NCBI GenBank assembly: GCA_963718615.1
Contig: OY970368.1
Coordinates: 2,208,001 to 2,272,000, forward strand
From: an uncultured cyanobacterium
GTDB lineage: Bacteria; Cyanobacteriota; Cyanobacteriia; PCC-9006; JAAUQQ01
Reading direction: 5' to 3'
DNA: 64,000 nucleotides
Notes under the pieces: model-generated
Databases searched by the model: none
Seen by the model: only the letters and a program-made list of their open reading frames with translations
What the model was told of the DNA's origin: nothing
Part shown: in pieces, positions 30,628 to 47,507 of the stretch
How the letters are laid out: the number at the start of each line of letters is the position of its first letter
How positions within the stretch are numbered: the first letter of the stretch is position 1
Position numbers and translations under genes: made by a program

Positions 30628-30933
30628 AACAAACGCGGATGATTCGCCGGAGCAGTGGACTACCCAGTACTGAAGATTGTCGGTCAAGGAAAGTTCACAA
30701 AGATAGAGGACAAAGAAGACAAACCGAGCCAGGGAAAACCCCCAGGGGAAACTCAAGGTTATGTCCGAGACAGTCTAGGGTCAGCGGGGTGTGGTAGCGT
30801 CAGAGCGAGATAAATTTGCGATCGCCCCCTCAGCGATCATCAGCGATCAGCGCCCCCACCCATGGCTATAAACGCCTTTCGTCTGTTCCTCAAACATCTT
30901 GGTCTGGCACCGGATTTGCCACCGCAGAACTGT

Positions 30934-33192
30934 ATGTATCGGTTTCAGATTACCGCAGCGACAAAACCTGGAGAAACCATTGTTTTGGTGGGCTCCTGTC
31001 CGGAATTGGGGTCTTGGGACATTGCCAACGGGGTTCCGCTTCGGACGGGGGGCGATCGCTATCCCCTCTGGTGGGTTGATGTAGCCTTTAATGGTGATGT
31101 CTATAACAGCGATGTCTATAACGGCGAGAGAACCGAGCCCCAAAGGATTGAATACAAGTATGTTCGACTGGGTCAAGATGGCCAAGCGGCCTGGGAAGGC
31201 TGGGGCCATAATCGCTGGATTCCCCTTGAACCAGAGCTACCGGCTGGCTGCGTGATCGTTGAAGATGGGCTATTTGGCAACATTCATCCCCATCCCTACG
31301 GATATTTTGCAGACCCCATTCCCCAGGCGCTGTCTCCGAAGGGAGCGGAAGGACTCAAGGTGGTGGTGATTGGTAGTTCCGTGGCGCTGGGCTGTAGCGC
31401 TTGGTTGTTGCGGGGCTGGTCCTGGCGGTTATCCCAGGCGTTGCGCGATCGCTATGGCCATCAACTGGTGAATCGGTCCGAAATTGGAGCCAATGTCAGT
31501 GGGACCATCGCCCGCTTTTCCCAGGTGGTTACACCGGAACAGCCCGACATTGTGATTATTGCGCTGTCCTTGGGCAACGAGGGGTTTGCCTCCAGCTCTT
31601 CGCAGCAGCGACGGGCAATTCAGCGACATTTCGAAAATGGCCTTCAACAGCTAATCAAAATGACCCGTGAACTGGGGGCGCGACCGATTTTAGGGGGGTT
31701 GTATCCCAATGGTGGCTATACCGCTGAGCATTGTGACTGGCTGCGGGAAACCCACGATCGCATGGCAACCTGGGGCGTACCGCTGTTGGATTGGTGGGCC
31801 GTTTTGGCCGATGGGTCAGGGCGTTGGCAGCCCGGTTTGGCCTTTGACCCAGCCCATCCCAATACCCGAGGCCATCAGCTCATGTATGAGGCAATCGACC
31901 TCAACCTGTTTCAACCCATTCCCAAGGACCTCAATCCCCCGCAAACGCTGGATGTTGCAGGGAGGGTCACCCTGTTTCAAGACCCGGATGGGTTTGAGAT
32001 CGGGGCTTGTAAAGCGGAAAACAGTTTCCGCATCCTCAATACCAGCCCCCATACCTACCAAATTACCCCCAATTGGTTAACCCTACAAGCGGCCTTGCAA
32101 ACCGCTGCTTTTCCTGCCGGGGTGTATATGGCGGAAGCAGAGGCCACGGGGCAGTTGTTCTCGTTGTTTATTCAAGATGAGGGCCAAATTGCAACGACGC
32201 TGAGTTTGCCTCCAGCGACGGATCTGACCTTTTATCCCGCCTTCCATTTCTTCGCCTCCCAACGATTCCAGGTGCTCTTTTTCGATGGGCCGTTAAAAAT
32301 CCTCAGGAGGGGCGATCGCCGTCTCTATCTCATCAACAAATCAGACCACGAATACAATTTGCATCCCATGTGGTCAGCGCTGCGCGCCGCGTTCAAAGCC
32401 ATGCCCACGGGACTCTACGAGGATCCCCACCATCCTGAGATTCCCTTTCGGTCGCTGATGGTGGGCCGTGAGGGTTTGGAGAGTCGGGTCAAGGTTCCGG
32501 CCCAATCGGCGATCGCCCTGGAATACCGATGCCCGTTATCCGAGGTCAACCGGGTGGCGATTTTACCCTTGGGCGATCGCTGTGCGGTTCGAATGTTGTT
32601 GTATAAGCTAGAGTACGATGGACCGGCGTTTCCCTTTGACCTAACACGAACGACGAATTTAGCCGATGTGGCGGATCTCATCCAAAACGATTTCCGCGAC
32701 ATGTGGAATCCTGCTTTTTTGAGTTACAACGCCGAGGAAAAACGCATTTATCACACCCAATGGACGGGATTGTCCTTTGCCCACGAAGTTGAAGACTACG
32801 AGGATCCCGTGCAGGATATGTCACCGATCCACGAGCGCATGCAGGTCCGCTACAGTGCCCGTGCAAAACGCTTTAGCTATACCCTGGAACACTGTGACAA
32901 GGTGTTGTTTGTGCGCACGGGGGGATGCGATCGCGCCACGGTCATCGACCTGGTCGAAAAACTCAAATCTAAATGCCAAGATAAACCCTTTCGGCTGCTG
33001 CTGATCTCGCCCCAAAACTCCGACGAATTCGCAGGTTTGCCCAACGTGCTCCACCAAAATTTGGCGTTCAACCCCGATCGCATGTACGAAGATCTCGGCT
33101 ATTGGCAGCACTGCACGGAACGCATGGGCGAGATTCTCAAGAATTTAGGCATCTCCAGCAAAAATCTCTTCTGGTGCCCCCCGAATCCCTAG
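30934..33192 (+). CDS. CBM20 + SGNH/GDSL hydrolase + DUF1796-like (papain-like) multidomain protein
   Basis: GETIVLVGSCPELGSWD and IEYKYV (CBM20); GSSVALG and DPAHPN (SGNH); PLGDRC...FPFD (DUF1796-like). Confidence 0.8.
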   Translation: MYRFQITAATKPGETIVLVGSCPELGSWDIANGVPLRTGGDRYPLWWVDVAFNGDVYNSDVYNGERTEPQRIEYKYVRLGQDGQAAWEGWGHNRWIPLEPELPAGCVIVEDGLFGNIHPHPYGYFADPIPQALSPKGAEGLKVVVIGSSVALGCSAWLLRGWSWRLSQALRDRYGHQLVNRSEIGANVSGTIARFSQVVTPEQPDIVIIALSLGNEGFASSSSQQRRAIQRHFENGLQQLIKMTRELGARPILGGLYPNGGYTAEHCDWLRETHDRMATWGVPLLDWWAVLADGSGRWQPGLAFDPAHPNTRGHQLMYEAIDLNLFQPIPKDLNPPQTLDVAGRVTLFQDPDGFEIGACKAENSFRILNTSPHTYQITPNWLTLQAALQTAAFPAGVYMAEAEATGQLFSLFIQDEGQIATTLSLPPATDLTFYPAFHFFASQRFQVLFFDGPLKILRRGDRRLYLINKSDHEYNLHPMWSALRAAFKAMPTGLYEDPHHPEIPFRSLMVGREGLESRVKVPAQSAIALEYRCPLSEVNRVAILPLGDRCAVRMLLYKLEYDGPAFPFDLTRTTNLADVADLIQNDFRDMWNPAFLSYNAEEKRIYHTQWTGLSFAHEVEDYEDPVQDMSPIHERMQVRYSARAKRFSYTLEHCDKVLFVRTGGCDRATVIDLVEKLKSKCQDKPFRLLLISPQNSDEFAGLPNVLHQNLAFNPDRMYEDLGYWQHCTERMGEILKNLGISSKNLFWCPPNP

Positions 33193-33425
33193 GCCGAGGC
33201 ATCCTAAGACAGAGATCGATGCGCTCCATTTGCCGATGCTGATCATTGCGACATTGAAATAATCGCGACCCTGAGATTTTGGGGCGATCGCTGCTTTCCG
33301 TTTGAGCTTTGGAGATTCAACGGAGGCGGACAGAGGCGATCGCTTACGTTTCTTGAATTGTTTCTGTATCGTTCTAAGTAATTCCCGTTTTGTCTCGGTC
33401 ATCAATATTCAGTCATCTATCGCCC

Positions 33426-34679
33426 ATGCATCCTCGCCACACCCTTCAGGATCAGTTCTCGACCTTTGCCTGGTTTGAGAATGATACCTTCCGCTCTTGG
33501 AAAGGGGAGCCTCGACTTCGTAAAAGCATGGCACAGGTGCTGGCAACAGTTCCCCAATATGCCGCTGCTACCCCGGAAAATGAGCGGTTTTGGGCCTTGT
33601 CCTGGCATCGCCAATGGCGCGATCGCGCCCATCCTTGGGCCGAACAACATCTGCTCGCCTATTTGCAAGAACCTTGCTACTGGGCAGCCCAGGAGGTCAG
33701 CCGCAAACGCTCTGGCCAGTTTGGAGCCCCCTCGACAAGCCCGGTTTCGGATTATTTTCAGATGGCGATCGCCGAAGCCAAACCCGCCCTCGATAAATTT
33801 CAAGCGGATCAATCCAGCAATCTCAAGGCCTTTGCCCAGGTTTTTCTCAGCTATCGCCTCAAGGCAGCCCTGCGCCGTAGACGCGAAGCCGACTTTTGCA
33901 CCCCCTGGGGGCTGCTGCGCAAAACCAGCAAAAAGCTTGTCCTCGAAGCCCTGCGACAAGCGGGACTGAAGCCCCCTGAGGTTGAGGAATATCGATTGCT
34001 GTGGATGGGATTTCAAGCCCTCTACATCCAGACCCAACCGAACAACACCGCCAAGCTGCCCGAGCCTGATTTAGCCCTTTGGGAGGCGATCGCCCAATTT
34101 TACAATCAAAAACGCACCGGTCAGCTCAGCCATGGAGCGCCTAGTCTCACTGCCGCTCAAGTCCAAGCCCGGTTGCAGCAGTTGGCCCAGTGGGCTCGGC
34201 AATATATTTATCCGACCGTTCAATCCCTCAATACCCCACAATTTGGTGATGACGATGCAGGGGAAGAACGGCTGAACAATCTCTCTCAGGCCGAACAGCG
34301 GTCCTTGATGGATGATTTGATTGAACAAGATCTTCAGGCCCAGCGCGATCGCCAATCCCACACCCTCCAACAACTATTGCTCGATGCCTTTCGTCAGCTA
34401 GATCGCCAAACCCAAACGGTCCTTTGTTTGCTCTACCATCACGGTCTTTCCCAGCAGGCGGTGCGGGATCAGCTTAAGATTAGCCAGCCCACGGTTTGTC
34501 GACGATTGAAGGCAGGCCGACAGGCGTTGATCCAGGCCATTTTAAACTGGATGGACGATCGCCTGAATAAAACCCCTGATCCTGAGCAATTAAACAGCAT
34601 CACCATCCATTTAGAAGTCTGGTTGAAGGTTTCCCTGCCCGAGCTAAACCTCTGCGAGCAATCGGAACCGCCCTCCTAG
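33426..34679 (+). CDS. Cyanobacterial group 3/4 sigma-70-like factor
   Basis: HLLAYLQEPCYWAA, C-terminal region-4 HTH LSQQAVRDQLKISQPTVCRRL. Confidence 0.8.
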   Translation: MHPRHTLQDQFSTFAWFENDTFRSWKGEPRLRKSMAQVLATVPQYAAATPENERFWALSWHRQWRDRAHPWAEQHLLAYLQEPCYWAAQEVSRKRSGQFGAPSTSPVSDYFQMAIAEAKPALDKFQADQSSNLKAFAQVFLSYRLKAALRRRREADFCTPWGLLRKTSKKLVLEALRQAGLKPPEVEEYRLLWMGFQALYIQTQPNNTAKLPEPDLALWEAIAQFYNQKRTGQLSHGAPSLTAAQVQARLQQLAQWARQYIYPTVQSLNTPQFGDDDAGEERLNNLSQAEQRSLMDDLIEQDLQAQRDRQSHTLQQLLLDAFRQLDRQTQTVLCLLYHHGLSQQAVRDQLKISQPTVCRRLKAGRQALIQAILNWMDDRLNKTPDPEQLNSITIHLEVWLKVSLPELNLCEQSEPPS

Positions 34680-34700
34680 CCCCTGTTTCCGACCCATTAC

Positions 34701-34747
34701 CTGTTCTTTCTTCCCTGTTCTTTCTTCCCTGTTCCCTGTTCCCTATT
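34701..34747. repeat. Short tandem repeats
   Basis: CTGTTCTTTCTTCC x2 then CTGTTCC x2. Confidence 0.6.
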
Positions 34748-34761
34748 TGAAATTTTAGGCG

Positions 34762-35991
34762 TTGAGCACAATGTCAACTTTATTTCTGGATACCATTACA
34801 GATGCCTGGACCCTGCCACTGACAGAGACCGATCGCCAGCAGGCTTGGCAAGCCAGTCAGTCCCAGGGCAACCCTGAGCGGCGTTGGGTAACCTATCTCA
34901 ACCGCCTAACCCTGAATGCGTTTCAACAGGTTTGTCCTTCAGCCCTAAACCAGCCCTGTGCGCCTTGGCCCAGTCTGGCGGCGTTACCGGCCATTTGGGA
35001 ATTTACAACGGGGATGGCGATCGCCCTAGGTGAACATCGCCTGGTCCTGATTCCGACGGAAACTGTGGATGCTAGCGAGTTCAGCGTTCCGCAGGAATGG
35101 GTCGACATTCCCGATTGGGCTGCGGACTATTATGTTTCGGTGCAGCTCACGCCGAATGAATCAGAGTTGCGGATTTTGGGTTGTACCTCCCATCAGTGGC
35201 TCAAAACCTCAGCCGATTACGATGCCTTTGACCGCACCTATACCTGTGAGACAGAGGATCTCATGGCTTGGGAAAGTTTTGCCTTGACCTATGGCCGCTA
35301 TGCAGCGGCTCAAACCCGAGGGCCAGTGGCCGCCATCGCCCCGCTGGATGCAACCCAGGCTCAAAACCTGATCCAGCGCCTAGGCAATCCCCAAGAATTG
35401 CTGCCCCGTTTGGAAATTCCCTTTGCCCAGTGGGGGGCATTGTTGGCCAATCCGGTGTGGCGAGAACAATTGTTTGCGGTCCATCGGGGTCAATCGGCGG
35501 TAGATGTCCTTGCCCCGATTACGCAGCTCTCTCTCTGGCTGCAATCGCAATTTGACAGTCTCTGGCAACCCCTCGATAGCGTTCCCCGGTTACAGGCGAT
35601 TCCCACGCGCAGTCGTCGCGCCCCGGCCACTCAGATCGATGGCGAGGTGGCGGGAAATGGAGCAGAAAATGGGGCGATCGCCCCCATGGTGCATCGCGTT
35701 AAGCCCGTGACCTTCAACGAATCGGTCCGTCTTTGGTTGGTGCTGGGTGTTGCGCCGTTGCAGGATGGCGATCGCCGCATTTTCTTAAGCCTCGAACCCG
35801 CTGAGGCTGAACAAGCCCTGCCGGGATCTGTACAACTGCGTCTGCTGAGTGATGCGGAAGAGGAAATTGGACAGGCCAGCGCGGCAACGACGGAAGTGAT
35901 TGAAATGCAGTTTCGGGCGAGCCCTGGGGAGCAGTTTTTTGTGGAAATTAGCAGCGAAGCCACTCGGCTACTGGAGCATTTTGAGGTTTGA
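34762..35991 (+). CDS. DUF1822 family protein
   Basis: RLVLIPTE, VPQEWVDIPDWAADYY, PRLEIPFAQWGALL. Confidence 0.88.
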   Translation: MSTMSTLFLDTITDAWTLPLTETDRQQAWQASQSQGNPERRWVTYLNRLTLNAFQQVCPSALNQPCAPWPSLAALPAIWEFTTGMAIALGEHRLVLIPTETVDASEFSVPQEWVDIPDWAADYYVSVQLTPNESELRILGCTSHQWLKTSADYDAFDRTYTCETEDLMAWESFALTYGRYAAAQTRGPVAAIAPLDATQAQNLIQRLGNPQELLPRLEIPFAQWGALLANPVWREQLFAVHRGQSAVDVLAPITQLSLWLQSQFDSLWQPLDSVPRLQAIPTRSRRAPATQIDGEVAGNGAENGAIAPMVHRVKPVTFNESVRLWLVLGVAPLQDGDRRIFLSLEPAEAEQALPGSVQLRLLSDAEEEIGQASAATTEVIEMQFRASPGEQFFVEISSEATRLLEHFEV

Positions 35992-36305
35992 GAAACAAAT
36001 TATCCAAGGGCGAGATTGAGAAATTTTTCCCTAGCCGGGACTCCAGCTTGGCGAGGTCTTCGTTGCGGTTGAATTCTGATTGCGCCCTGTTCCCAGCTTC
36101 GACCTCCCGAATTCCGAGTCGGGGAGTCGTGGGCAGATCAGGAGTCACATCTGAGTTTAATGGAAGGGACTTTCACCCTCATCATTAGGACAGTTCAGCT
36201 CTTGAGAGTGCTTCATGTTTGGAAGCCAAGCTGGCAGAGTTATTTACGGGCTTGCACCGTTATTCATCTGCAACGAATCGCACTCCCTATCCCGATTAGG
36301 CGACA

Positions 36306-36316
36306 GTTGAGGCTTC
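36306..36316 (-). other. Degenerate attC R'' box of the methyltransferase cassette
   Basis: GTTGAGGCTTC overlapping the stop codon; matches cassette start GTTAGGCTTC (minus strand, 37127-37118) in inverted orientation with a 1-nt insertion. Confidence 0.45.
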
Positions 36317-37029
36317 TAATCCAGCGCCGTTCGCTTTGAAAACCAAGCGTGAATGAAAAGAGTTTGGAAAAACAACACCGGAGTATCGAATCCACCCGCT
36401 GCGATAATTGCTTCAATTTCCGGTGGGGTTAAAGCTGCGAGGTGAAGACTCCAGGCAGTGCGCATTCTTTCGATATCTTCTTCACCCCAGCCAGAGCCTC
36501 CGAGCATTCGCAGCCAAACTTCAATCAAACTTTGATGAATCGGAGCCGACAGACCGAGAACTAGATCTGAACTGATCAAAATTCCACCGGGGTAAAGGCG
36601 TTGTGCGATTTGATTGAAAAAGTGGCTCCGCTCTGCCGCTTCTTTCAAGAATTGAGAGACCAAAAGGCAAGTCGCCGCATCGAATGGATCAGAAGCGGGC
36701 AGCGAGTCGAGATAGCCTTCGTGGAACGTGCAACGTGAGGTAATTCCATTTTCTTCGGCTTTTTGACGGCAGATATCCAGCATTGCAGACGCAGGCTCAA
36801 CCGCTGTGAAGTGACATTGCGGAAAGACTTGTGCCAGAGCGATCATTTCCGTTCCGGTACCGACACCGACACACAGAATTCGCGCCTCAGCCGGAAGCTC
36901 GGCGAAAATCAGGCGTGTTAACGAAAAGAGTGCTTCGCGTGAAGATGCCCAACCAGCGGTTTTCTCGTCGTAGGAAGCCGCAGCTTTTTGGTTGTCAAAT
37001 GGCATCATGGCTGACTGTTGGTTCTGCAT
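36316..37029 (-). CDS. Class I SAM-dependent methyltransferase (cassette gene)
   Basis: ILCVGVGTG motif I, VEPASAML, FDAATC, LYPGG. Confidence 0.9.
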   Translation of the reverse strand: MQNQQSAMMPFDNQKAAASYDEKTAGWASSREALFSLTRLIFAELPAEARILCVGVGTGTEMIALAQVFPQCHFTAVEPASAMLDICRQKAEENGITSRCTFHEGYLDSLPASDPFDAATCLLVSQFLKEAAERSHFFNQIAQRLYPGGILISSDLVLGLSAPIHQSLIEVWLRMLGGSGWGEEDIERMRTAWSLHLAALTPPEIEAIIAAGGFDTPVLFFQTLFIHAWFSKRTALD

Positions 37030-37207
37030 GATGGAAATAAAAGATGCTCCAACTAAATTTTACAAATCACTTTCGTTCATTCACACGCATATCTCCTCAA
37101 CAAACTCAAACTCCTGTGAAGCCTAACGTTGCCCATCACCCGCCGTAGATAACCTTTGCAATAACTCATTAACTTTTAGCGGTCGGTGTGCATGGGCGTT
37201 ATGGGGG

Positions 37208-37505
37208 GACGGGGGAGAAGAAACAGGAAGAGACGACTATGCATTGGACGACACAGAGGATGTCTACTAACATACCGAATCGCTCATCCCTCTCCCATTC
37301 GCGAATTTGACAGAACCGCATAAAGTCAAGAAAGGAGAGAATCTGCCAGCTAGTCGGGACGACTATGCAGCGCCAGTCAGAAGATGACTACTAACATATC
37401 GAATCGCCCGTCCAGCCAATCCAATCGCGTACCGACGAATCCTCAGGGAGTAGGGAAAGACTCTTTCCATAATCTCTTCGCTTTGCGAGCGGGGGCAGAC
37501 TCTCC
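37208..37505 (+). ncRNA. Putative bridge RNA with two target-type loops and one donor-type loop
   Basis: Two repeated stem/internal-loop units (37232-37283, 37358-37407) and a third loop with CCTCAGGG and CCATAAT matching the IS end junction. Confidence 0.7.
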
Positions 37506-37534
37506 ATCCAACAAAACACCCTCAATCTAGCACA

Positions 37535-38800
37535 ATGAAACTCAACCTCAGCACAACCGTTTATGCTGCCTATATCGGCATTGATTGGGCAGACCGCAAA
37601 CACGATATTGCTCTCTATGACTGCCAGAACGAGACCTGGGAGCAATCCACCATTCAGGCCACTCCTCAGGCGATCGCGGATTGGGTCAACCAATTACGAA
37701 AACTCTATGGAGAGCGCAAGCTTTTGGTGGGATTGGAGCAGAAACGTGGACCTTTGCTCTATGCCCTGTGCCAATATGAGAATCTGGTACTAGTGCCCAT
37801 CAATCCCAGAACTGTGGCGAACTATCGAAAAGCGTTTCAGCCCTCTCGGGCCAAATCAGACCCGATTGATGCCAAGCTGATTATCGAATTGATGCAAAAG
37901 CATGGGGAGAAGCTCGATATTTGGACAGCGGGTTGCCCGAAGCATCGTGCGTTGAGACAATGGGTTGAATCCCGTCGGATGTTAGTCGGGGAGAAGGTGC
38001 GGCTCACCAATCGCATTACTGCTGCGCTCAAATCCTACTTTCCCCAAGTGCTCGATTGGTTTGAAGACAAAGACACGACGGCGTTTTGTGAGTTTCTCGA
38101 ACGATTTCCCAATCTACAGGCTGCTCAAGCGGCCACAGCTCATGAATTGAGACAGTTCTTTCGTCATCATCACATCATTCGTAAGGCAACCATTCAACGA
38201 CGCACTCAGCAAATTCAAGACGCGGGTCCAGCCTTGACAAAAGATGATGCGATCATCGTCCCCGCCCAAGCTTTGATGTTGGGTTTAGTGGCTTTATTGA
38301 AAGTTGTTTTGTGTCAGTTGATTATCTTTGAACAGCAAATCGAATCGTTGTTTGAATCTCTACCGGATGCAACTCTCTTTCGGGCATTACCCGGAGCAGG
38401 TCCACATTTGGCACCTCGATTACTGGCAGCGTTTGGGGAAGACCGTACTCGCTTTGACTGTGCTCAGGCTTTTCTGAGTTACATCGGCATTGCACCGGTT
38501 AAGGAAGAAAGTGGCAAGAAACGTTGGGTCCATTGGCGTTGGTCTTGTCCTATCTTTCTGAGGCAAACTTTTGTCGAGTGGGTCACCCATGCTCGGTCTC
38601 GCTCGCTCTGGTCACAGGCATTTTATCAACAGCAACGACTAGCGGGTAAATCTCATCAAAAGGCTATTCGTGCTTTGGCTTATAAATGGGGACGAATTCT
38701 TTGGCGGTGTTGGCAGGATAGGACTCCTTATGATGAGGAAAAGTATCTCGCTGCTCTCCGGTGCAAAAACTCTCCTTTGGTCGCTCTTTTACCGGCTTAG
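37535..38800 (+). CDS. IS110-family DEDD recombinase/transposase
   Basis: IGIDWAD, GLE, KSDPIDA (DEDD RuvC-like); LPGAG...IGIAPVKEESGK (Tnp domain with catalytic Ser). Confidence 0.95.
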   Translation: MKLNLSTTVYAAYIGIDWADRKHDIALYDCQNETWEQSTIQATPQAIADWVNQLRKLYGERKLLVGLEQKRGPLLYALCQYENLVLVPINPRTVANYRKAFQPSRAKSDPIDAKLIIELMQKHGEKLDIWTAGCPKHRALRQWVESRRMLVGEKVRLTNRITAALKSYFPQVLDWFEDKDTTAFCEFLERFPNLQAAQAATAHELRQFFRHHHIIRKATIQRRTQQIQDAGPALTKDDAIIVPAQALMLGLVALLKVVLCQLIIFEQQIESLFESLPDATLFRALPGAGPHLAPRLLAAFGEDRTRFDCAQAFLSYIGIAPVKEESGKKRWVHWRWSCPIFLRQTFVEWVTHARSRSLWSQAFYQQQRLAGKSHQKAIRALAYKWGRILWRCWQDRTPYDEEKYLAALRCKNSPLVALLPA

Positions 38801-38976
38801 GTCTCTGTCTTTTTGCTCGATTGAACTGCTTTAGGTTTTGAACCAATCGAATACGAAAAATACGAAGATGGCTCTGATAGCTCAGTTCGGCTGAGACTCA
38901 AAACTGACTATCAGGTGGTTTGTGCTGGCTTCAATTCGCTCGGATATTACATCAGAGTTATTTTGTATCTTCTCTA

Positions 38977-39005
38977 TTGACCCCGTCCGCCTCAGGGCCT
39001 ATGTT
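38977..39005 (+). promoter_or_regulatory. IS right-end -35 box and junction promoter
   Basis: TTGACC (38977-38982), exactly 17 nt, then TAT; gives TATTAT when joined to the left end, TATGTT in the integrated state. Confidence 0.65.
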
Positions 39006-39066
39006 ATGCTGCGTTGCCATCTTTAGCTTTCGTTCTCAATCACTAATGCCTCAAGTGCTGAAACTG

Positions 39067-39306
39067 TCAACTTTCCTCATAAGCCTGTAAGAATTCATCC
39101 CGTGATATACCTGACTGAGTACAAATTGTTCTCAGTGTAGATCCCTTGATCTGTTTGTGGTTAGGTAGGGTTAAAGGTGTTGTCGTACCATCTTCATTTT
39201 CTCGAACCATTGAAATGTGCTCCCGCTCTCTAACGACTTGAAATCCTAAAATTCCGAGTGCTCGAATGACTTTTGCTTTGGGCAAATCAACCGGAAACTT
39301 TGGCAT
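39067..39306 (-). CDS. hicA: HicA-family toxin
   Basis: LGILGFQVVREREHISM...LPNHKQIKGSTLRTI. Confidence 0.88.
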   Translation of the reverse strand: MPKFPVDLPKAKVIRALGILGFQVVREREHISMVRENEDGTTTPLTLPNHKQIKGSTLRTICTQSGISRDEFLQAYEES

Positions 39307-39537
39307 TTAAAGACTTGCCTCCGCAACAAATGCTTCTAGCACAGGCGATTCTGGTTCAAGTACTTCTACCCCAAAAGTTTCAACATGAAATCGAATGGCT
39401 GATCTGACATCTGCTAAAGCTTCTTCATAGGTATCACCTTCGCCAACAACAACACCTTGAATTCCTAATGGATAGGCGATATACCCATCTGAGTGTCGTT
39501 CAACAATAATCTTGATGTTCTTCATTTTTATCTCCAA
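39307..39537 (-). CDS. hicB: HicB-family antitoxin
   Basis: GYIAYP...GEGDTYEEALADVRSAIRFH. Confidence 0.88.
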   Translation of the reverse strand: MEIKMKNIKIIVERHSDGYIAYPLGIQGVVVGEGDTYEEALADVRSAIRFHVETFGVEVLEPESPVLEAFVAEASL

Positions 39538-39557
39538 ATCAATAAAAGAAGGGTTTC

Positions 39558-41777
39558 TTAAAACCTATCCACTTTCTTTTTGTAAACCTCTTCCATTGGA
39601 AGCAGTAATTTTCCCAAAATTTCACTTTTTATAGTGGAATCAATATTGGAAGTGTTTATCCCACGCAGCAGCAATAAATGAGCATCATAATACAGTCCGA
39701 GAACTTCCTTTTGAGATTCACTAAAATTCCACTCACGACCTAAACTGCGATATTGAAGAATCACATCCCTTAGAGCGTCAGCCCATTTCTTATGATTTGT
39801 GTTACACCACTCACGATGTAATTCTTTGTTCTCCCTCCATTCAGGTATTTGTACTTTCAAGCTCAGAAGCTCTTTCTCTAACTCAAAACTATTAACTGAA
39901 TGTACAGTCAAATGATTAACGAGAATTCTATTTAGGAAATCTAATCCAAGCCAGGGTGATTGTGTGTTGTCATCCGGCTCTACCCACCAAAACCCATAAT
40001 GACTACGCACATAAGCAACTATCAAATTCATATCTAAAGAAAATTCACCACTATTGCGGTAACAGGCTGTTTCTCCTATATCCTCATTACTAACATCATT
40101 GCCCATAAAGAAGGGATTGCGCTCTCTTGTGTTTTCTTCTTTAAGCTGATTGTCAAGAGCCATACATAGAGGTGGAAATACGCTATAGCTTATTTCTGAA
40201 GTAAAAACACCATTTAACGTTATGTTGTAATAAAGAAGGAAAGCACGAATGGCTTCTGGTAAATACTGCAATGTTAATGAGCAAGACTTTTGGTAAATCC
40301 AGGTTAAGAATTGCTGCAAATCTGAATCTTCAGATATAAGTCTATCAATTTCTTCCTTTAAAAGAAGGGTGAATTGATTTATAAATTCAGTTGACTCAAT
40401 GGCTATTTTCAGTACTTCCCACCATTGTCTATTAGAAACCTTCTTGGCTAAATTTTTTAACTCCTGTAAGTCACGCTTTTTAATAAGTCTTCTGGCTATA
40501 AAGTATTCTTGAAAAGTTAGATGAGAAAAGGAATAAATTCCCTGCGCTCTCTGAATTAATAATCCATGTTGTGCTTCAATTGCTCCTAAGACTGCTCTCC
40601 CGTCCTGAACTGAAATCTCTAGAAAATCTGATATATCTGTAACCAGTTCCCTATGTTCAAATAAGATATACTGCGATTGCTCAAATTTTTTTGCTGCCAA
40701 GTAACTTAATAGCTCTGTTTTCTGGTCTGCCGACAAATCTCGATAAATGCTGTCGCGCTCTATCTCTCGCACTTTATCCCATCTTTCTAGCAGTAAATCT
40801 AGCCCCTCTTCGTAAAGCCGAGAACGCTTTGAATAAAATTTTCCTGTTTGGTGAAACACTGCACAGGCTAAACTCAGAAGAATAGGCGTGGTCATTAATC
40901 GACGAATGGATTTATTGTCATAGTGTCCTAATCTACTGAGAAATTCTTGGGATTTTTCTTTTCCTTCAATAAGACTAGATGTGATTGCTGTAAACCAATG
41001 GACTACAAAATTCTCTAACTGTTCATCACTAAAGTCTGCAATCTCTACATAATCAAAATTGTCAAATCGTGACTCCTGATTTTGTATGCGGCAGGTTATC
41101 ACTAACTGATTTTGAGGGTGAGTGCGCGCGAATGACTTGATTTGTGTAGAGATTTTCTTACCGTTTGCTCCAGTTACCTCATCCAATCCATCTAATAGAA
41201 TCAATGCTCTACCGTGGTTCAAGATAAAGTTGGTTTCAGATTCAGCCAATTGCCAATGCTGGGCTAAGTAAGATTCCAATCTATAGTTAACGCTGTATCC
41301 ATCATCCACAAACTCTCGAAGCTTAATAAACACTGGAATGCGATGTGACTGTAAGCGTCCGTCATTACATTCCGTAATAATATGCTGTAGGTAGGTTGTT
41401 TTTCCTGATCCTGGTTTGCCAACCACCATCAAGTTTTTGTCTCTTGACAAACAATCTAAACCTGATATTCGTTGGAGTTGTTTACATAATCCGACTCGGT
41501 CTAGGCTACGACTATAAGAGTGCTGCTGGGCTTCCTGATTAAAATCTTGCCATAAATCATTCAGTTCAGATTTGCGGCTACTGTTAAGCCCTTCAAGAAT
41601 ATTCACATCTACAAACAATTCACTTAATGGCACCCAATGATCTATTCCCCACAGAGGCATTGTGCCATGCAAGCGTTGGATGTCGTCATGAAAACGAGAT
41701 CGTATTTGTTGTACTAATTCATCTAAGGAAATCTGTGGGGTGCTTAACTTTGTCGGTGCCCCTCCCGACGAGTTCAG
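39558..41777 (-). CDS. NACHT-domain NTPase (start unclear; frame open up to the upstream gene's stop)
   Basis: Walker A GKPGSGKTT, Walker B LLDGLDE, ITCR, TPILL, FSHLTFQEY. Confidence 0.88.
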   Translation of the reverse strand: MNSSGGAPTKLSTPQISLDELVQQIRSRFHDDIQRLHGTMPLWGIDHWVPLSELFVDVNILEGLNSSRKSELNDLWQDFNQEAQQHSYSRSLDRVGLCKQLQRISGLDCLSRDKNLMVVGKPGSGKTTYLQHIITECNDGRLQSHRIPVFIKLREFVDDGYSVNYRLESYLAQHWQLAESETNFILNHGRALILLDGLDEVTGANGKKISTQIKSFARTHPQNQLVITCRIQNQESRFDNFDYVEIADFSDEQLENFVVHWFTAITSSLIEGKEKSQEFLSRLGHYDNKSIRRLMTTPILLSLACAVFHQTGKFYSKRSRLYEEGLDLLLERWDKVREIERDSIYRDLSADQKTELLSYLAAKKFEQSQYILFEHRELVTDISDFLEISVQDGRAVLGAIEAQHGLLIQRAQGIYSFSHLTFQEYFIARRLIKKRDLQELKNLAKKVSNRQWWEVLKIAIESTEFINQFTLLLKEEIDRLISEDSDLQQFLTWIYQKSCSLTLQYLPEAIRAFLLYYNITLNGVFTSEISYSVFPPLCMALDNQLKEENTRERNPFFMGNDVSNEDIGETACYRNSGEFSLDMNLIVAYVRSHYGFWWVEPDDNTQSPWLGLDFLNRILVNHLTVHSVNSFELEKELLSLKVQIPEWRENKELHREWCNTNHKKWADALRDVILQYRSLGREWNFSESQKEVLGLYYDAHLLLLRGINTSNIDSTIKSEILGKLLLPMEEVYKKKVDRF

Positions 41778-42242
41778 TCAATCGGGCTTTACTCCATAGT
41801 AATTGTTATTGGTAATTGAACCTTGTTGAACCGAGGCGTTCGGCTGAATTTCTCTATTGTTAAATTGTTGTCCTGTTCCACCAAAAACATTTAATACGTT
41901 CTCAGCATCACAATTCTCAAATTGAATTACTTGATAGATTTCATGCACCAGAGTTTGAATTTCTTTCTCGAAAATTTCATCAACTTTCCATAACCCATTC
42001 AAGTAGTTTTTCAACTTCTGAATATCTTCTGGTGAGTCCTGGGCTGCTCCTGTTAATACCTTCTCTGCTTGGGGCTTGCCTTTGATAGCTTTTTGCCAAA
42101 CAGCTTCGCCTAGCTTCTGAATTAACTTTGTAACACTCTCACTGGTCTTTTTGCCCAATTCACCTGCACCGCCTTCGACAAATTTATCGAAAGCAACTTT
42201 TGCGATCGCCTGTGCTGCTGCCAAAGTAATCAGTTCCATCAT
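41778..42242 (-). CDS. Small hypothetical protein in frame with the NACHT gene
   Basis: 154-aa ORF ending in an N/Q/G-rich tail, NNNYYGVKPD*. Confidence 0.75.
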   Translation of the reverse strand: MMELITLAAAQAIAKVAFDKFVEGGAGELGKKTSESVTKLIQKLGEAVWQKAIKGKPQAEKVLTGAAQDSPEDIQKLKNYLNGLWKVDEIFEKEIQTLVHEIYQVIQFENCDAENVLNVFGGTGQQFNNREIQPNASVQQGSITNNNYYGVKPD

Positions 42243-42407
42243 GCTGACTTTACCGCTAACTCACCATCTCATTTTTACTCTACCAACACCGTAATGTCTG
42301 CAATCTTAGGATTTTTCCAGAAATTCATAGGCTAAGCTCATCATTGGTCTTTCTGTAATTATTGCTACTTACAGATAACCTCCCGGTGCGTCCCCACCGA
42401 GGACTAA

Positions 42408-42575
42408 GCAGCATAACAATCTGATTAGACTGAATCGATTCTGCCTAATCCCTTAAAAAGAGAGCGTTATACAGAACCTGTTCGGCCTATTCACTCCACA
42501 ATGAATATTAGACAGAATTGAATTCTGCATAACACCCCAAAACAGAAGATTAGGCGGAACCATCTTCCGTATAAT
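42408..42575 (-). promoter_or_regulatory. attI-like core plus four phased palindromic boxes
   Basis: Minus-strand GTTATGCTGC at 42417-42408; 11-bp inverted arm pairs starting at 42424, 42466, 42507, 42549. Confidence 0.6.
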
Positions 42576-42587
42576 ATCCATAATTCC

Positions 42588-42648
42588 ATGGATAAGACGA
42601 CCCAGAAAGTTTTTCCTTCAAGAATCTTTGCACGGATTTCCGTCTAAT
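42588..42648 (+). pseudogene. Possible N-terminal stub of an integron integrase
   Basis: ATG GAT AAG a CGA CCC AGA AAG gives MDK/RPRK with a 1-nt shift, resembling IntI N-termini from memory; divergent from cassettes; no catalytic region present. Confidence 0.3.
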
Positions 42649-43019
42649 CCCTTGCCTCCATAATAGTGCAAACGATCTAGTGCCGAAATCTGAAGATAAA
42701 CCAGCAGTGCAGTAAAATAGGGCACTGTCCTGCTTAGGAGTGATGCTCTCTGAAACCCAGTGAATTCGTGGATTTTAGCTACGAGATTTCGTTGATCACG
42801 CTTTCAAACATCAGTACGCAGTTCTAGATTCACACCGGGGCTCGCCTTCACTTGATGCCGCTCCGAGCCTGATAGATCAGTCTTAGATCAGAGAACCTGG
42901 GGAATCGCTCAACACCTCACCCACAGGCAGCTCCGGGTTATAACAGTTTTTCTTTTGGGAAAACTAAATTCAGCCCCCCAACGGCGATTCCGTACGGCAA
43001 TTCCCTGGCATAGAAGCCC

Positions 43020-44639
43020 ATGCTGAATCTTGTGCTTAATCTTGCTCTGTTTCGTCCGCCTCTAGTTGCCCTGACTCGTAGCCTCAAGCGCTCCGGCGTT
43101 GCGGCCTTGGGCTCTGGTTTGGCGATCGCCCTCTTCTTAGCGACACCGGGCAAAGCCGCCGAGCGGCTGTTGCTCCCCCTGGATGCTCCCCCTAAAATCC
43201 AAGGGTTTTTGAGCTGGACGCTCAAGCTTAACGAGGCCCAGGTCGAGCATTTCCTGAGTTCGCCCTTGGGGGCATCGCTCCTAGCCATTCCCAGCGACTG
43301 GATCGAGTTACCCGAGGGAGATGCCCAGGCCAGTTTGCGTCAGGCGATGGTGCGGGCGGCGGCGGAGCCGGAGGGACTGACGCTGTTAGGAATTTTGCGG
43401 CAGCTACCGCCCCAGGCTCAGGTGAATGCGGCGAAGGTGTCGGCCTTTGTCCGCCAGCGGGCAGAGTTGGACCAGCAGACGGAGGCGATCGCCCAATCCC
43501 TCGCCCAAAAAAGTCAGGCGATCGCCCGCACCGAATCGTTTCCCCCTAGAGCCACGGCCCTTGACCCCAGACGCCCCGGACCCTTTACGATTGCGCAACA
43601 AAGTTTGACCTTGAGGGACACAAAGCAAGATCCCCTCAAACCGGGCAAAACCGATCGTCCCCTTCAGGCCGATTTATATTTACCTCAGGAACAGTTGACC
43701 GAGGCTGGCGCTCCAGCTTCAATTCCCGTGGTCATTCTGTCCCATGGTTTGGGGGCAAACCGCGAAGGCCATGCCTTTTTTGCCCGCCATCTGGCCTCCT
43801 ATGGCATTGCCGCGATCATGGTTCAGCATCCCGGCAGCGATACAACCCAGCTCCAGGCCATGTTGCAGGGAGAGCGTCCGGACGCGATGGAAATCAGCGC
43901 CTTTATCGATCGCCCTCGGGATATTTCCTGGCTCCTAGACGAACTCGAACACCGCAACGCCCAGGATTTTCACAATCGCTTAAAGCTCGATCGGGTGGCG
44001 CTCTATGGTCATTCCCTGGGGGCCTACACAGCCCTGGCCTTGGCGGGGGCAGAACCCAATTTTGCCCAGCTTGAGCAAGACTGCACCCCTCAAAAGGTAG
44101 CGCTCAATCCCTCCCTAGTGGTGCAATGCCGTGCCCTGGCCCTCCCCCGTGAGCGTTGGAACCTTCGGGATCGTCGCATTGCCGCATTGCTGTTGTTTGA
44201 CCCCGTAGGCCGCAGCATTTTTGGTCCCCAGGGATTGAAGCAGGTGGCGATACCAGTTTTTTGGGGGGGCGATCGCAGCGATTTACTCACCCCCTTAGCG
44301 ACGGAGCAGCTACCCGCCTTTGAAGCCCTGGGCAGCCGAGAAAAATATTTCAGTCTGACCGAAGGGGTACAACACATCAATTTTCAGTGGAATCACCTGA
44401 CCCAAGCCCGCAGTCTGATGGAAACAGAGCTGATTGCGGCCAAACCCTTGCCGTACCAAACCTATGTCAATGCCCTGGGGCTGGCATTTGTGCAAGTACA
44501 GTTGGGCCAAAAGGCAGCGGCTGCGCCGGACCGCTCCGACTACCGACCCTACCTCAGCGCTTCCTATGCCCAACAGCTCAGCACCGCCTCCTATCCCCTC
44601 AGTTTTATCCCCCCCAATTTTTCGCTTTCCCAGAAATAG
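43020..44639 (+). CDS. Alpha/beta hydrolase with DUF1400-like N-terminus
   Basis: VILSHGLG, QHPGS, GHSLG nucleophile elbow. Confidence 0.88.
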   Translation: MLNLVLNLALFRPPLVALTRSLKRSGVAALGSGLAIALFLATPGKAAERLLLPLDAPPKIQGFLSWTLKLNEAQVEHFLSSPLGASLLAIPSDWIELPEGDAQASLRQAMVRAAAEPEGLTLLGILRQLPPQAQVNAAKVSAFVRQRAELDQQTEAIAQSLAQKSQAIARTESFPPRATALDPRRPGPFTIAQQSLTLRDTKQDPLKPGKTDRPLQADLYLPQEQLTEAGAPASIPVVILSHGLGANREGHAFFARHLASYGIAAIMVQHPGSDTTQLQAMLQGERPDAMEISAFIDRPRDISWLLDELEHRNAQDFHNRLKLDRVALYGHSLGAYTALALAGAEPNFAQLEQDCTPQKVALNPSLVVQCRALALPRERWNLRDRRIAALLLFDPVGRSIFGPQGLKQVAIPVFWGGDRSDLLTPLATEQLPAFEALGSREKYFSLTEGVQHINFQWNHLTQARSLMETELIAAKPLPYQTYVNALGLAFVQVQLGQKAAAAPDRSDYRPYLSASYAQQLSTASYPLSFIPPNFSLSQK

Positions 44640-44702
44640 CTCTGTATCAAATCAGATCCGTAGGGCTATGATGGAGCGGATTTATCCCGATCGCATCCAC
44701 TC

Positions 44703-46061
44703 ATGGCGTTGCTTTTGACGGTGTCCCTAGCCGGTTTATCCCTGGCCGGTTTATTAAATGGTTTTCCAACGGTTTATCCCTTAGCGTTGGTGGCTCAGAA
44801 GGATTTGATGATTGATCTAGAGCCAATTATTGATCTAGAAGCAATTTTAAAGTTAGGGGAGGGGCAGGAGCTCAAGCAGGAGCCTCAGGCGGAGCCAAGT
44901 TTACCGGATGAGGCGCTGAATTCAGACGAAAAATTAGCAGAACAAGAAGTTGTTGAACCTCAGCCGGAGCCTTTCGATGCGGCCTCAGCCTATCCCAGTT
45001 TTGGCAGTGCGCCCTTGGATGTGCAGTTACGCCGCTATTTGAATTACCTGTTGGTGATGGGGCCACCGGATATTTTTATCGTGGGTAGCTCTCGGGCAAC
45101 CCAGGGTGTCGACCCACTGATTTTGCAGCAGGCCTTGGGGGAGCGGGGCTATCCAGGGCTCAAAGTGTTTAACTGGGGCATTAATGGAGCGACTGCTCAA
45201 GTGGTGGATGTGCTGGTGCGGGAAATTTTGACCCCAGCACAGCAGCCTCGGCTAATTCTCTGGGCCGATGGTTCACGGTCTTTTAGTAGTGGGCGACGCG
45301 ATCGCACGTTTGAAAATTTGGTGCGATCGCCCGGCTATCGATTGCTCAAGCAAGGACAACGGCCCCAGCTCACGGAACCGGAACAACAGCAGTTTGCCCA
45401 ACTGCGGACGGTCCTCCAGGAAGGACTGCCGACGCTACCCGATAATCTCAAACAGCAATTGACCGTAAACGCTGCCAAACGTCCGACGGTCCCACAGACG
45501 GTTCCACTGCGCACCTTTTTTGTCGACTGGTGTTCGAGGGAGCAGGGGCCTTGTTCTCGGCCAGTGATTTTCCAATCGGGAGCCCTGGCAGAAACCATCG
45601 CCTTTAATGCGGAGCCCTTTTTGGAGGCATCTGGATTTCAGATCAACAACCAGCGGTTTAATCCCCAAACCTATTTCCAGTTTTATCCCTGGATTACGGG
45701 AGAATTTGACGGGGACTACCAAAACTTCAGCCTCTGGGGCCACCAGCATCGGGCGCTCAAGCGGCTCTTAGGGTTTGCCCAGCGACAACGGATGCAGGTG
45801 GCGTTTTTGAGTTTGCCCCTCACCCAAACCTATCTCGATCCAGTCCGTCGTCAGCGGGAAGACGCGTTTATCATCTATATGAAAGAGATGGCGAAGGATC
45901 GGACGCTTAACTTTTACGATTTCAGTCGGCTTTGGCCCAATCGCAATGACTTTTTTATTGACCCTAGCCATGTCAACCGCTACGGTGCCGCAGCAGTATC
46001 TTGGCAGTTTGCCCAGGAGATCGATCAAGCCATTCTAGAAAAACTGAAGCGGCCCCGATGA
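44703..46061 (+). CDS. SGNH-like (DUF1574-like) protein
   Basis: VGSSRA, FNWGINGATA, DPSHVNRYGA. Confidence 0.75.
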   Translation: MALLLTVSLAGLSLAGLLNGFPTVYPLALVAQKDLMIDLEPIIDLEAILKLGEGQELKQEPQAEPSLPDEALNSDEKLAEQEVVEPQPEPFDAASAYPSFGSAPLDVQLRRYLNYLLVMGPPDIFIVGSSRATQGVDPLILQQALGERGYPGLKVFNWGINGATAQVVDVLVREILTPAQQPRLILWADGSRSFSSGRRDRTFENLVRSPGYRLLKQGQRPQLTEPEQQQFAQLRTVLQEGLPTLPDNLKQQLTVNAAKRPTVPQTVPLRTFFVDWCSREQGPCSRPVIFQSGALAETIAFNAEPFLEASGFQINNQRFNPQTYFQFYPWITGEFDGDYQNFSLWGHQHRALKRLLGFAQRQRMQVAFLSLPLTQTYLDPVRRQREDAFIIYMKEMAKDRTLNFYDFSRLWPNRNDFFIDPSHVNRYGAAAVSWQFAQEIDQAILEKLKRPR

Positions 46062-46077
46062 CTCACCCATTACTCCA

Positions 46078-46734
46078 ATGGCAATCAAATCAATGGTGCT
46101 CAAAGACTGGGTACGCAAGGGATTGGGCCTCGCGTCAACTCTGCAACCCGCCCTAAAACTAATCCCAAAATTAATCCCAAAGTTAATCCCAAAGTTAATC
46201 CCCAAACTAATCCTTTCGCTGGGGTTAGTCGGGGTAATTCTGTGGAGCAGCTTTCCGGGGCAGGCTAGGGCGGAGATCCATACCTATCCCGAGAATGCTG
46301 ACCAAATCATGTATCGTTCCCGGTTGAGCCTGAGGGATGACCAAGACCAAGCGTGGCAAACGATTGTGTTTAAGCGGGTTCGTGTCGGTCAGGTGACAGA
46401 ATTTAAGCTGCGACTGGTGGGCTTTCCAGGACAGGTGGCGTTGGCCCATCCAGTACCGTTGCACATTCATCAGCTCGCCTATGAGCATTGGTCCGCTGCG
46501 GATGAGACCGAACAGGATCCCCAAATTCTGTCGGTTTTGGCGACCGTGGGGCAATATGACCTCCGAACCGTCATGCAGGATCTCGATCGCGCAGCCCCCC
46601 TAACGCTGGAAATTCCAGTAGAGCAACCTAATGACCAGGGCATTGAATACAGAACCTTGCTGGTGCCTCCCTATGCTGTGCGAGAGTGGTTGAGACTTAA
46701 AGACTCGACACCAACGGCTTCAACGGGATTTTGA
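46078..46734 (+). CDS. DUF3122-like exported protein
   Basis: SLRDDQDQAWQ, LRLVGFPG, QYDL. Confidence 0.8.
   Translation: MAIKSMVLKDWVRKGLGLASTLQPALKLIPKLIPKLIPKLIPKLILSLGLVGVILWSSFPGQARAEIHTYPENADQIMYRSRLSLRDDQDQAWQTIVFKRVRVGQVTEFKLRLVGFPGQVALAHPVPLHIHQLAYEHWSAADETEQDPQILSVLATVGQYDLRTVMQDLDRAAPLTLEIPVEQPNDQGIEYRTLLVPPYAVREWLRLKDSTPTASTGF
46155..46212 (+). repeat. 12-bp in-frame tandem repeat (KLIP x4 plus partial)
   Basis: AA(A/G)(C/T)TAATCCC(A/C) units. Confidence 0.8.
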
Positions 46735-46940
46735 ATGGGTTCAAGCCGATAGCCCAAAACCTGGATGTCATGACAAAAAAAACCTCGCTTGGGATGGAGC
46801 GAGAAGGCTGGCGCTTGGCCATTTTTCCATTCCGCTTCGGTCAAGAGTGCTGCGCCCTGGGAGCAGGGAATCAGTTGAATGGGAACCTGACGGCTCCGAG
46901 ACACCAAAACATGGGTGGGCTGAAACGTTGACTGAGACAT
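46671..46940 (-). CDS. Small conserved hypothetical protein
   Basis: MSQSTFQPTHVLVSRSRQVP...LLTEAEW; GGAGG upstream. Confidence 0.6.
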   Translation of the reverse strand: MSQSTFQPTHVLVSRSRQVPIQLIPCSQGAALLTEAEWKNGQAPAFSLHPKRGFFCHDIQVLGYRLEPIQNPVEAVGVESLSLNHSRTA

Positions 46941-47507
46941 TCTTGAGGTAACCTCCACAGGTGTTAAACGTAAAAACACGTTGTCTTCACTGGGATGCAA
47001 CCAAACCTGACTTAATCCTGAAGGCATCGGATCCATAAACGGCTGAACATCCATTCCCATGAATATCCAGGCAAAATTCATAAACCCATGCAAAGCGCTC
47101 TACGGGGCCGCCAAGAACCAAGCCAAAAGCAGGGCTCCCATAAAGAGACGGCTGTAGAGCGGATTGCTCAATATTCTCTTCACCCCTCTGTCTTCTTCCT
47201 AGGGTGAATCCATCGAAAATTCGTGGGGGACTGCAAAATTAAGCCGTGAATTTACTTATCAAGTGAGAAGAAAAATGGTGCATTCCTAAGAGTAGGCCTG
47301 CACAAAAGCAAGCCGGGTAGCAACCCCCCCACGTCACTACGGCTCTCCCCACCCCCGAATTGAGGAGTTGGTCGTTAAAGTGTTGAAGAGGAACATTAAG
47401 AGACCGTAACACTTTCAGGAGTACAAGGGTGCATTCAGGGTTGATTTAACGGTCCGTTCATCTCCTCCCGTTCATTCCCTCAATCTGGTGAGGCTTTAAA
47501 GCGTCGT

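Follow-up and report, generated by a model that had tools for sequence, protein, structure and literature searches.

The window analysed here, a 64,000-nt stretch from an uncultured cyanobacterium (GenBank assembly GCA_963718615.1, contig OY970368.1, positions 2,208,001 to 2,272,000), carries at 42804-36075 on the minus strand a 6.7-kb integron-derived island. With a probability of about 0.87, this island is an integron cassette platform without an integrase of its own, consisting, in the order of the minus strand, of an orphan attI-type element (element A), a 3.4-kb cassette, an attC split by an insertion sequence (IS), a methyltransferase cassette and a truncated 5' piece of a group II intron (element B). 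The locus is a real and ordinary piece of a cyanobacterial integron, and its components are of known kinds: a decayed integron, or an array resembling a cluster of attC sites that has no integron-integrase (CALIN), together with an attC-targeting IS. An initial annotation, made from the letters alone, had regarded the region as a decayed integron whose first cassette was locked in place by an IS in its attC. Every string quoted in it was found at its position, and the integron origin and the lack of a local integrase were borne out; however, a copied integrase-less platform is more likely than decay on the spot. The features are collected in Table 1. Genome coordinates refer to the genome under study (G000); G003 and G004 are genomes of the same family.

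Table 1. Features of the integron-derived island in window coordinates (ORF, open reading frame; SAM, S-adenosylmethionine).
Feature	Position	Strand	Description
Element A	42417..42804	-	attI-type; ends CAGATT-G|TTA, i.e. G|TTATGCTGC
attI/cassette junction G|TTATGCTGC	42408..42417	-	start of cassette 1; crossover G|TT at 42417/42416
Cassette 1	42417 to attC 39009-39003 + 37200-37121	-	3.4 kb; 154-aa ORF, NACHT nucleoside triphosphatase (NTPase), hicBA
154-aa ORF	41778..42242	-	first gene of cassette 1; stand-alone cyanobacterial small-protein family, no Pfam match
NACHT-family STAND NTPase	39558..41672	-	C-terminal NCH2; Pfam NACHT 73.3 bits, NCH2 79.3 bits; PADLOC PDC-S60 E 2.9e-12
76-aa ORF	39307..39537	-	putative HicB-like antitoxin; abuts hicA; HicB_lk_antitox 13.6 bits, below cut-off 27
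HicA toxin	39067..39306	-	last gene of cassette 1; Pfam HicA_toxin 38.2 bits (cut-off 27)
Extended R'' box GCAGCATAAC	39003..39012	-	attC of cassette 1; R'' core GCATAAC at 39009-39003
IS	37201..39002	+	1802 bp; antisense to cassettes, immediately 3' of R'' core; IS110-family DEDD transposase
IS transposase	37535-38800	+	DEDD_Tnp_IS110 (PF01548) 96.2 bits; Transposase_20 (PF02371) 59.4 bits
Remaining attC	37121..37200	-	spacer, L'', variable loop, L', R'; R' = GTTAGGC at 37127-37121
Cassette 2	37126 to about 36301	-	starts G|TTAGGCTTC; methyltransferase gene
Class I SAM-dependent methyltransferase	36316..37029	-	Methyltransf_25 58.1 bits
R''-like box GAAGCCTCAAC	36306..36316	-	overlaps TAG stop of methyltransferase ORF; complement of cassette-2 start plus one extra base
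Element B	36075..36300	-	truncated group II intron 5' fragment; sense to cassettes; distal array end; six bases past the R''-like box

The attC of cassette 1 provides the first line of evidence. Canonical attC sites are 57-141 nt long and form an imperfect palindrome of R'', spacer, L'', loop, L' and R', in which the R''/L'' arm has unpaired extra bases. Sequences related to the 85 nt at 37116-37200 are present at other places of this genome, and alignment of 11 intact copies, from which the window site was left out, revealed an R'' ending in ..YTAAC, a 3-nt spacer, a 13-pair L''/L' stem, a variable loop and an R' of the form GTTRRRY, with three bulged bases on the 5' arm of the hairpin. Across these copies, 88% of the cells of the 19-pair structure are paired, compared with 31.7-45.0% when partner columns are slid; compensatory changes occur in 7 of the 19 pairs, and none of 500 shuffles reaches the observed covariation score. 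A covariance model built from the 11 copies, again excluding the window site and here called R1, was scanned over the window with its filters off and matched the uninterrupted 91 nt at 37118-37208 on the minus strand (75.5 bits, E 5.9e-21). When the IS (37201-39002) is removed in silico, the junction GCAGCATAAC|AACGCCCATG is restored, which is the family consensus; the profile of the intact sites gives it 72.1 bits, a value within the 56.5-82.0 that they themselves span. This reconstructed site has the structural make-up of an attC (about 90 nt, R'' GCATAAC, R' GTTAGGC and an AAC/AAC spacer). On these scores the sequence 39012/37200-37121 is identified as a true attC interrupted by the IS, in agreement with the initial proposal. 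The genome holds further sites of the same family (24 R1 matches at E<1e-4), many of them near remnants of the integrase gene intI, and R1 also matched 107 of 151 sampled cyanobacterial genomes (E<=1e-6). An attC model specific to Cyanobacteria has already been published, as stated in the accessible text of PMC8352920.

The position of the IS is fixed by its junctions. On the R'' side, eight junctions in the genome read ..YTAAC|ATAGGCCCTGAGG, with unrelated DNA before them, and on the L'' side six read ...CCCCCCAT|AA(A)C before the L'' arm begins; because these eight and six junctions coincide, the element inserts at one fixed point directly 3' of the R'' core. Of the limits first given for it, 37200-39002, the right end was exact and the left end was one base off. 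Its transposase matches the model NF033542, named 'IS110 family RNA-guided transposase', with 176.4 bits (cut-off 140), and is accompanied by non-coding regions of 334 nt (5') and 202 nt (3'). An imperfect inverted repeat of about 11 bp (GGGGGACGGGG / CCCCGTCCGCC) was recognised by eye; beyond it the element extends by about 2 and 11 nt at its two ends. In the genomes G018, G003 and G017, relatives of the IS lie directly against attC sites; the attC in G024 lies about 290 nt from the start of the IS homology, and none was found beside the copy examined in G023. The best plasmid-borne relatives are 44-54% identical, and the surroundings of a 44%-identical transposase on a Klebsiella plasmid are uninformative.

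Two further observations concern the IS. Its 5' non-coding region contains, in the window segment 37230-37480 (plus strand), an internal direct repeat, roughly 70 nt long (GACGACTATGCA..CTACTAACATA.CGAATCGC..), which is a candidate guide-RNA structure. Elsewhere in the genome, at 3852922-3853986 and 3845755-3846752, internally deleted derivatives of about 1 kb retain both ends of the element without the transposase; they occupy attC sites of a decayed integron at 3.85 Mb and in this respect resemble miniature inverted-repeat transposable elements (MITEs).

The second line of evidence is the signature of a former circle. Cassette 1 begins with GTTATGCTGC at 42417-42408 (minus strand), and its exact 10-bp complement GCAGCATAAC stands at 39012-39003; the 10-mer occurs twice in the window, compared with 0.14 expected, and one shuffle in 100 gets two. 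Ten cassettes of the genome have a known start and an attC of their own; when the first 10 nt are set against the own R'' 10-mer, they complement it at 10, 10, 10, 10, 10, 10, 9, 8, 8 and 7 positions, where one value was read by eye and the tenth pair (1907447 to 1908627) was added from the 10-mer search. Complete complementarity is thus found in six of ten cassettes, compared with 9 of 607 other pairings (1.5%; mean 6.15), and, of 21 cases in which R'' was paired with the R' of its own site, none reaches 9. The self-complementarity argument of the initial annotation therefore stands, with cassette 1 pairing at 10 of 10 positions. Both cassettes of the window would formerly have been circles, in which the first bases complemented the own R''.

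Environmental sequences indicate that cassette 1 is found as a unit in other contexts. It is present in contigs of four metagenome studies at about 95-96% identity, and the matching stops at 42417 and at 39002: the match covers 39002-42398 in X1 record 6 (3453 nt) and 39077-42417 in X7 record 30 (3461 nt). Past 42417, the X7 contigs carry, in cassette orientation, letters resembling an attC L' arm and ending ..CACC before GTT, and past 39002 the X1 and X5 contigs go on for 27 letters that apparently do not match the IS. Many contexts are seen for the attC stretch 37123-37160, which has loose ends at 37123/37124 in each of the four runs, and metagenome cover of 42442-42975 and 36301-37101 is almost nil. 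Apparent joining of 37200 to 42387 in X7 was rejected, as its 21-nt sides are too short to trust. The GTT boundaries proposed in the initial annotation are real cassette boundaries, as judged from the breaks of homology in the copies of element A, the start/R'' pairs and the limits of the metagenome contigs, and variation exists at them. Cassette 1 accordingly has the attributes of a gene cassette: G|TT limits, a start complementary to its own R'' and varied contexts.

Element A, which the initial annotation overlooked, is an attI-type site. Phased repeats with the pattern TAGGCNGAA..TTCNGTMTAAY lie in it near 42424-42575; this motif has 31 matches in the genome, three of them isolated and most clustered at the attI of the intact integron, at that of one decayed integron and at the copies of element A. 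Such copies lie at 4666909-4667384 and 4665498-4665790, and the homology among the three ends exactly after CAGATT-GTTA. The genome contains four CAGATT|GTTA junctions, the fourth being at 5024848, and each is followed by a different first cassette. In the relative G004 (contig C83), a homologous element lies directly between an N-terminal remnant of intI and a junction ..AGATC|GTTAGC; an attC follows 1.2 kb further downstream. Element A is read as attI because this homologue adjoins the intI remnant and because the homology breaks at GTTA in three copies. Its outer 164 nt (42641-42804) are not derived from intI and recur in the genome only at 4666909-4667072, with 92% identity; since this segment is common to a second platform at 4.667 Mb, copying of an already integrase-less platform is proposed. 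The segment occupies the expected place of intI, and parts of it also match contigs of G003 and G004.

Small cassettes without ORFs were also noticed at these sites. The attI of the intact integron and the A copy at 4665790 are followed by the same one. A mini-cassette of about 200 nt, also without an ORF, stands directly behind attI in two arrays (L009:19278-19400 and L032:3875-3997). It consists mostly of a longer, divergent attC-like hairpin, to which R1 gives 25.4 and 20.0 bits.

A complete integron comprises an intI with the IntI-specific domain beside attI and cassettes, and at this locus the intI is missing. A search of the whole genome with TIGR02249 gave eight matches, none of them in the window, and the genome holds one intact intI and four loci with intI fragments; tblastn of the genome's own IntI against 42400-43100 likewise returned no trace beyond element A (best E 0.29). 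The absence of an intI ORF from the locus, as first annotated, was thus confirmed, but the genome is not integrase-less: an intact integron integrase is encoded at C1:948656-949594, 1.26 Mb away (443.8 bits, cut-off 265), and spans model positions 1-313 of 315 without stops.

The preferred reading combines these elements as follows. IntI-type attI x attC recombination would have placed the 3.4-kb multi-gene cassette at the G|TT of element A, and an IS110-family element that specifically targets the attC family has entered the site between R'' and L'', in antisense orientation relative to the cassettes. At its far end, the array stops in a group II intron that is truncated and takes the place expected for the last attC. 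Most likely, the platform was copied when it already lacked intI, rather than having decayed on the spot, and the intact IntI could act on its sites in trans. The IS-bearing attC may still fold, with the end of the IS giving a CATAAC pseudo-R''.

Among the alternatives, the one that survives best, though it is rather unlikely, holds that the locus is not decayed at all and serves as an active satellite landing pad on which the IntI at 948 kb works in trans. The completeness of that enzyme, the four orphan attI junctions with their different first cassettes, the occurrence of cassette 1 in other natural contexts and the full-length score of the IS-bearing attC all agree with it. On the other hand, element A and the attI beside the intact intI have different sequences, an attC is missing from the last cassette, and no excision joints are seen in the public runs, which are contigs only.

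On-site decay, in which a complete integron stood between the DUF1822 and hydrolase genes and lost its intI there, is unlikely. Such decay is the usual route to integrase-less arrays according to the available part of PMC4889954, and the intI remnants at other loci show that decay occurs in this genome. However, no intI remnant lies beyond element A, and the 164 nt standing in the place of intI are shared with the platform at 4666909-4667072; had intI been deleted twice independently, the foreign sequence left behind would not be the same. Moreover, the intI of G004 starts only about 45 nt from the conserved part of attI.

Locking of cassette 1 by the IS through destruction of its attC, as supposed in the initial annotation, is also unlikely. 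The IS does part R'' from L'', L' and R' by 1.8 kb, and the true R'' pairs with R' at six of seven core positions, compared with five of seven for the IS-derived CCATAAC. Nevertheless, the uninterrupted 37118-37208 scores its 75.5 bits from end to end and folds with an R''/R' stem, and a cassette excised together with the IS as one unit would need only the R' crossover. Since the end of the IS supplies CATAAC and the site scores full-length with the IS in place, the insertion need not block recombination. Finally, a generic horizontally acquired defence island with a chance 10-bp inverted repeat is highly improbable: many such repeats are expected among all pairs in 6 kb, and the 10-mer is not over-represented genome-wide (11 occurrences, 11.6 expected), but 7 of the 11 lie at integron junctions, and the attC model, the breaks in the A copies, the IS junctions, the start/R'' pairing and the metagenome ends all put boundaries at these motifs.

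Several results weigh against the integron platform or parts of it. The model R1 is specific to the attC family of this genome; its second match in the window reached just 14.4 bits (E 0.09) and lies on the opposite strand inside element A, and a crude generic scan of 35500-43200 for R''/R' plus a hairpin found no further attC-like site. The locus therefore has a single attC, compared with two or more under the IntegronFinder definition of a CALIN as given in the accessible text of PMC4889954. Cassette 1, at 3.4 kb and with four ORFs, is of unusual size. Among the six perfect start/R'' pairs, three have the motif GTTATGCTGC/GCAGCATAAC in common and are perhaps non-independent, and the metagenome evidence consists of assembled contigs whose ends fall in repeats. 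The repeats of the attI beside the intact intI are related to those of element A but different from them. When the two non-coding regions of the IS were compared with its target for common 7- to 9-mers, a single 7-mer remote from the insertion point came up, and it names no guide of the seekRNA or bridge-RNA kind. A search for an empty site found none: in genomes of the same family, the DNA flanking the island reaches a similarity of just about 67%, and no synteny was seen in G003 or G004.

The distal end of the island is formed by cassette 2 and element B. The start region of cassette 2 contains GTTAGGCTTC at 37127-37118. The initial annotation described GAAGCCTCAAC, at the stop codon, as a 1-nt variant of the complement of this start, and so it is; it is, however, just an R''-like box with no attC body, as R1 with filters off found no attC after it at 36200-36320. 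For the methyltransferase, no specific NCBIfam model scored above its cut-off. Element B begins with a conserved 14-nt leader, AATCGGGATAGGGA (36297-36284), followed by GTGCG (36283-36279), and its intron part extends over 209 nt to 36075. Seven copies are known, in the window and at 293168, 1014022, 3844574, 3909266, 4656217 and 4666536 of the genome; they have sharp 5' ends, the common leader and differing 3' truncation points, and the cassette-like sequence before them is different in each case. A group II intron of the genome G029 matches B in its 5' region, at 79% and 76%. That intron has a reverse transcriptase/maturase ORF and an RF00029 match of 49.6 bits, and is interrupted by another IS. 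RF00029 has no match in the whole genome under study, which holds no intact intron, and B has neither domains V/VI nor an intron-encoded protein. Because B is homologous to the 5' end of the G029 intron while the genome lacks an RF00029 match, B is interpreted as a dead 5' intron fragment.

The place of this intron relative to R'' is indicated by the copy at 3909 kb, where the bases before B (GCGGCATAAT) complement the start of that cassette at 9 of 10 positions. This suggests that the intron sits at or just after R''; a clear own R'' precedes B in one of the seven copies, besides the 1-nt variant of the window. The leader of B was also considered as a second type of attC and rejected, since at 1008728 and 815475, where it is uninterrupted, the fold is unlike that of an attC. 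RNA folding of B itself is not distinctive (z -0.59 and -1.46). A Phormidesmis intron was rejected as the homologue of B, its 5' region being alike only around a shared 22-mer. In G029, the group II intron at L053 (G029:C1:1519000-1528000) directly follows the transposase gene of an ISL3 element, and a DDE_5 IS in turn splits the intron's domain I.

The genes of cassette 1 include a candidate antiphage gene, the NACHT NTPase, and a predicted toxin-antitoxin pair. Homologues of the 154-aa protein number 74 in the search range of 84-270 aa, most of them 145-154 aa long, and matches occur in 55 of 301 sampled genomes. Among longer proteins no fused forms were found, which is weak evidence, and no related loci with the 154-aa protein were found in the genome contigs searched. 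The 154-aa and NACHT ORFs share a frame and are separated by a single TGA (41780-41778), after which no ATG, GTG or TTG occurs before the TTG at 41672; the 35 intervening codons look coding (..LDELVQQIRSRFHDD..). From this arrangement the NACHT gene would use either a non-canonical start codon, reinitiation or readthrough. For the HicB-like ORF, a PDB sequence search gave no match. Other arrays of the genome hold conflict-system genes too. Beside the intact intI, the first ORF-bearing cassette (L009:16358-18982; genome 945357-947981, minus strand) encodes an 874-aa EAD8-CHAT-TPR-periplasmic-binding protein; like cassette 1 of the window, it opens with GTTATGCTGC and closes with GCAGCATAAC and an IS fragment.

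The composition and setting of the island were also compared with its surroundings, and its foreign composition and low HIP1 density count in favour of the integron reading. The GC content is 39.1% in cassette 1 and 49.0% in cassette 2, compared with 55% in both 6-kb flanks, so that the description of the passenger genes as AT-rich applies strongly to cassette 1 and only mildly to the methyltransferase. The highly iterated palindrome HIP1 (GCGATCGC) occurs twice in the 6.7-kb island (0.30/kb), compared with a genome mean of 1.45/kb and with 2.80 and 1.67/kb in the flanks; the island is HIP1-poor, as first noted, and, as also noted, all five passenger ORFs lie on the minus strand, with the IS transposase on the plus strand. 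The island sits between a DUF1822 gene and a hydrolase gene. On the left flank (33390-35991), a gene for a sigma-70 region-4 protein precedes the DUF1822 gene, and this pair is adjacent in G004 too; the pair and the hydrolase gene are non-adjacent in G003 and G004, and the contig of G001 stops there. No transfer RNA genes were found at 30000-48000 of the window. An Rfam scan of 34000-45000 (E<=1) gave just one chance match, to a eukaryotic untranslated-region family, and a scan of the loci L052, L033 and L032 (E<=0.1) gave just one chance microRNA match.

Decayed integrons and CALINs have been described, and Cyanobacteria are named among the integron-bearing phyla in the accessible text of Cury et al. 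(2016, PMC4889954). The island shares with the arrays described there co-oriented cassettes ending in attC, the lack of a nearby integrase and a complete integron elsewhere in the genome. It differs in that the array keeps a recognisable attI-type site and ends in an intron remnant, and in that at least two orphan platforms have the same non-intI sequence upstream of attI.

A comparable targeting of attC is known from the IS1111-attC group, which was reportedly defined by Tetu and Holmes in 2008. Members such as ISPa21, ISPst6 and ISKpn4 have their insertion point close to the attC 5' end and run antisense relative to the cassettes, according to the available portions of PMC3001079 and PMC11187229. 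The window IS resembles this group, as it is characterised there, in its transposase of the DEDD/IS110 superfamily, its one fixed site near the attC 5' end, its antisense orientation and the truncated end remnants in arrays; the likeness is one of behaviour and transposase superfamily. In contrast to the members described in those texts, its host is cyanobacterial and its longer non-coding region lies upstream of the transposase gene (334 vs 202 nt), a layout closer to the IS110 type than to that of IS1111, in which the long region is downstream of tnp. The extensions beyond the imperfect inverted repeat are about 2 and 11 nt, not 7 and 3 as in that group, whose subterminal repeats measure 11-13 bp.

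Group IIC-attC introns, as far as the consulted section of PMC3001079 describes them, are found mostly in the last cassette of arrays and in antisense, on the bottom strand. Element B agrees with them in being a group II intron located with the last cassette, at the position of attC. It differs in its sense orientation and its 14-nt leader, and it is a 209-nt 5' fragment only. Integron cassettes have also been reported to encode phage defence (the available text of bioRxiv 10.1101/2024.07.02.601719 and of PMC12614218). Cassette 1 is similar to these in its NACHT NTPase, a candidate antiphage gene, and its toxin-antitoxin pair, with a predicted defence role, whereas it differs in being a 3.4-kb unit with four ORFs. 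Judged by title, no paper found on IS1111-attC was cyanobacterial, and none found on attC with IS110 in cyanobacteria dealt with this subject. As far as the literature searched goes, the IS lineage of cyanobacteria and the orphan copies of attI have perhaps not been described before.

Taken further, the findings could be fitted to a distributed integron, an idea that must be regarded as doubtful. Integrase-less attI pads would be copied as units bounded by the attI element and a sense intron remnant and served in trans by one IntI, while an RNA-guided IS and an intron lineage would both home to the R'' end of a phylum-wide attC family. The pads would then correspond to the four CAGATT|GTTA junctions, two of which have the same non-intI upstream segment.

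None of these findings overturns current understanding. With its clean boundaries, the locus illustrates the organisation and erosion of integron arrays among cyanobacteria, for which few descriptions exist, and orphan attI sites are recognisable here by sequence. It also reveals one conserved attC family parasitised by its own RNA-guided IS110-family element, and the natural target of this element, the R'' end of attC, is set by eight junctions and is useful for work on bridge and seekRNA recombinases. The 3.4-kb NACHT and hicBA module acts as one mobile cassette, seen in environmental relatives in other contexts, and such a mobile module is in keeping with the idea that integrons store defence genes.

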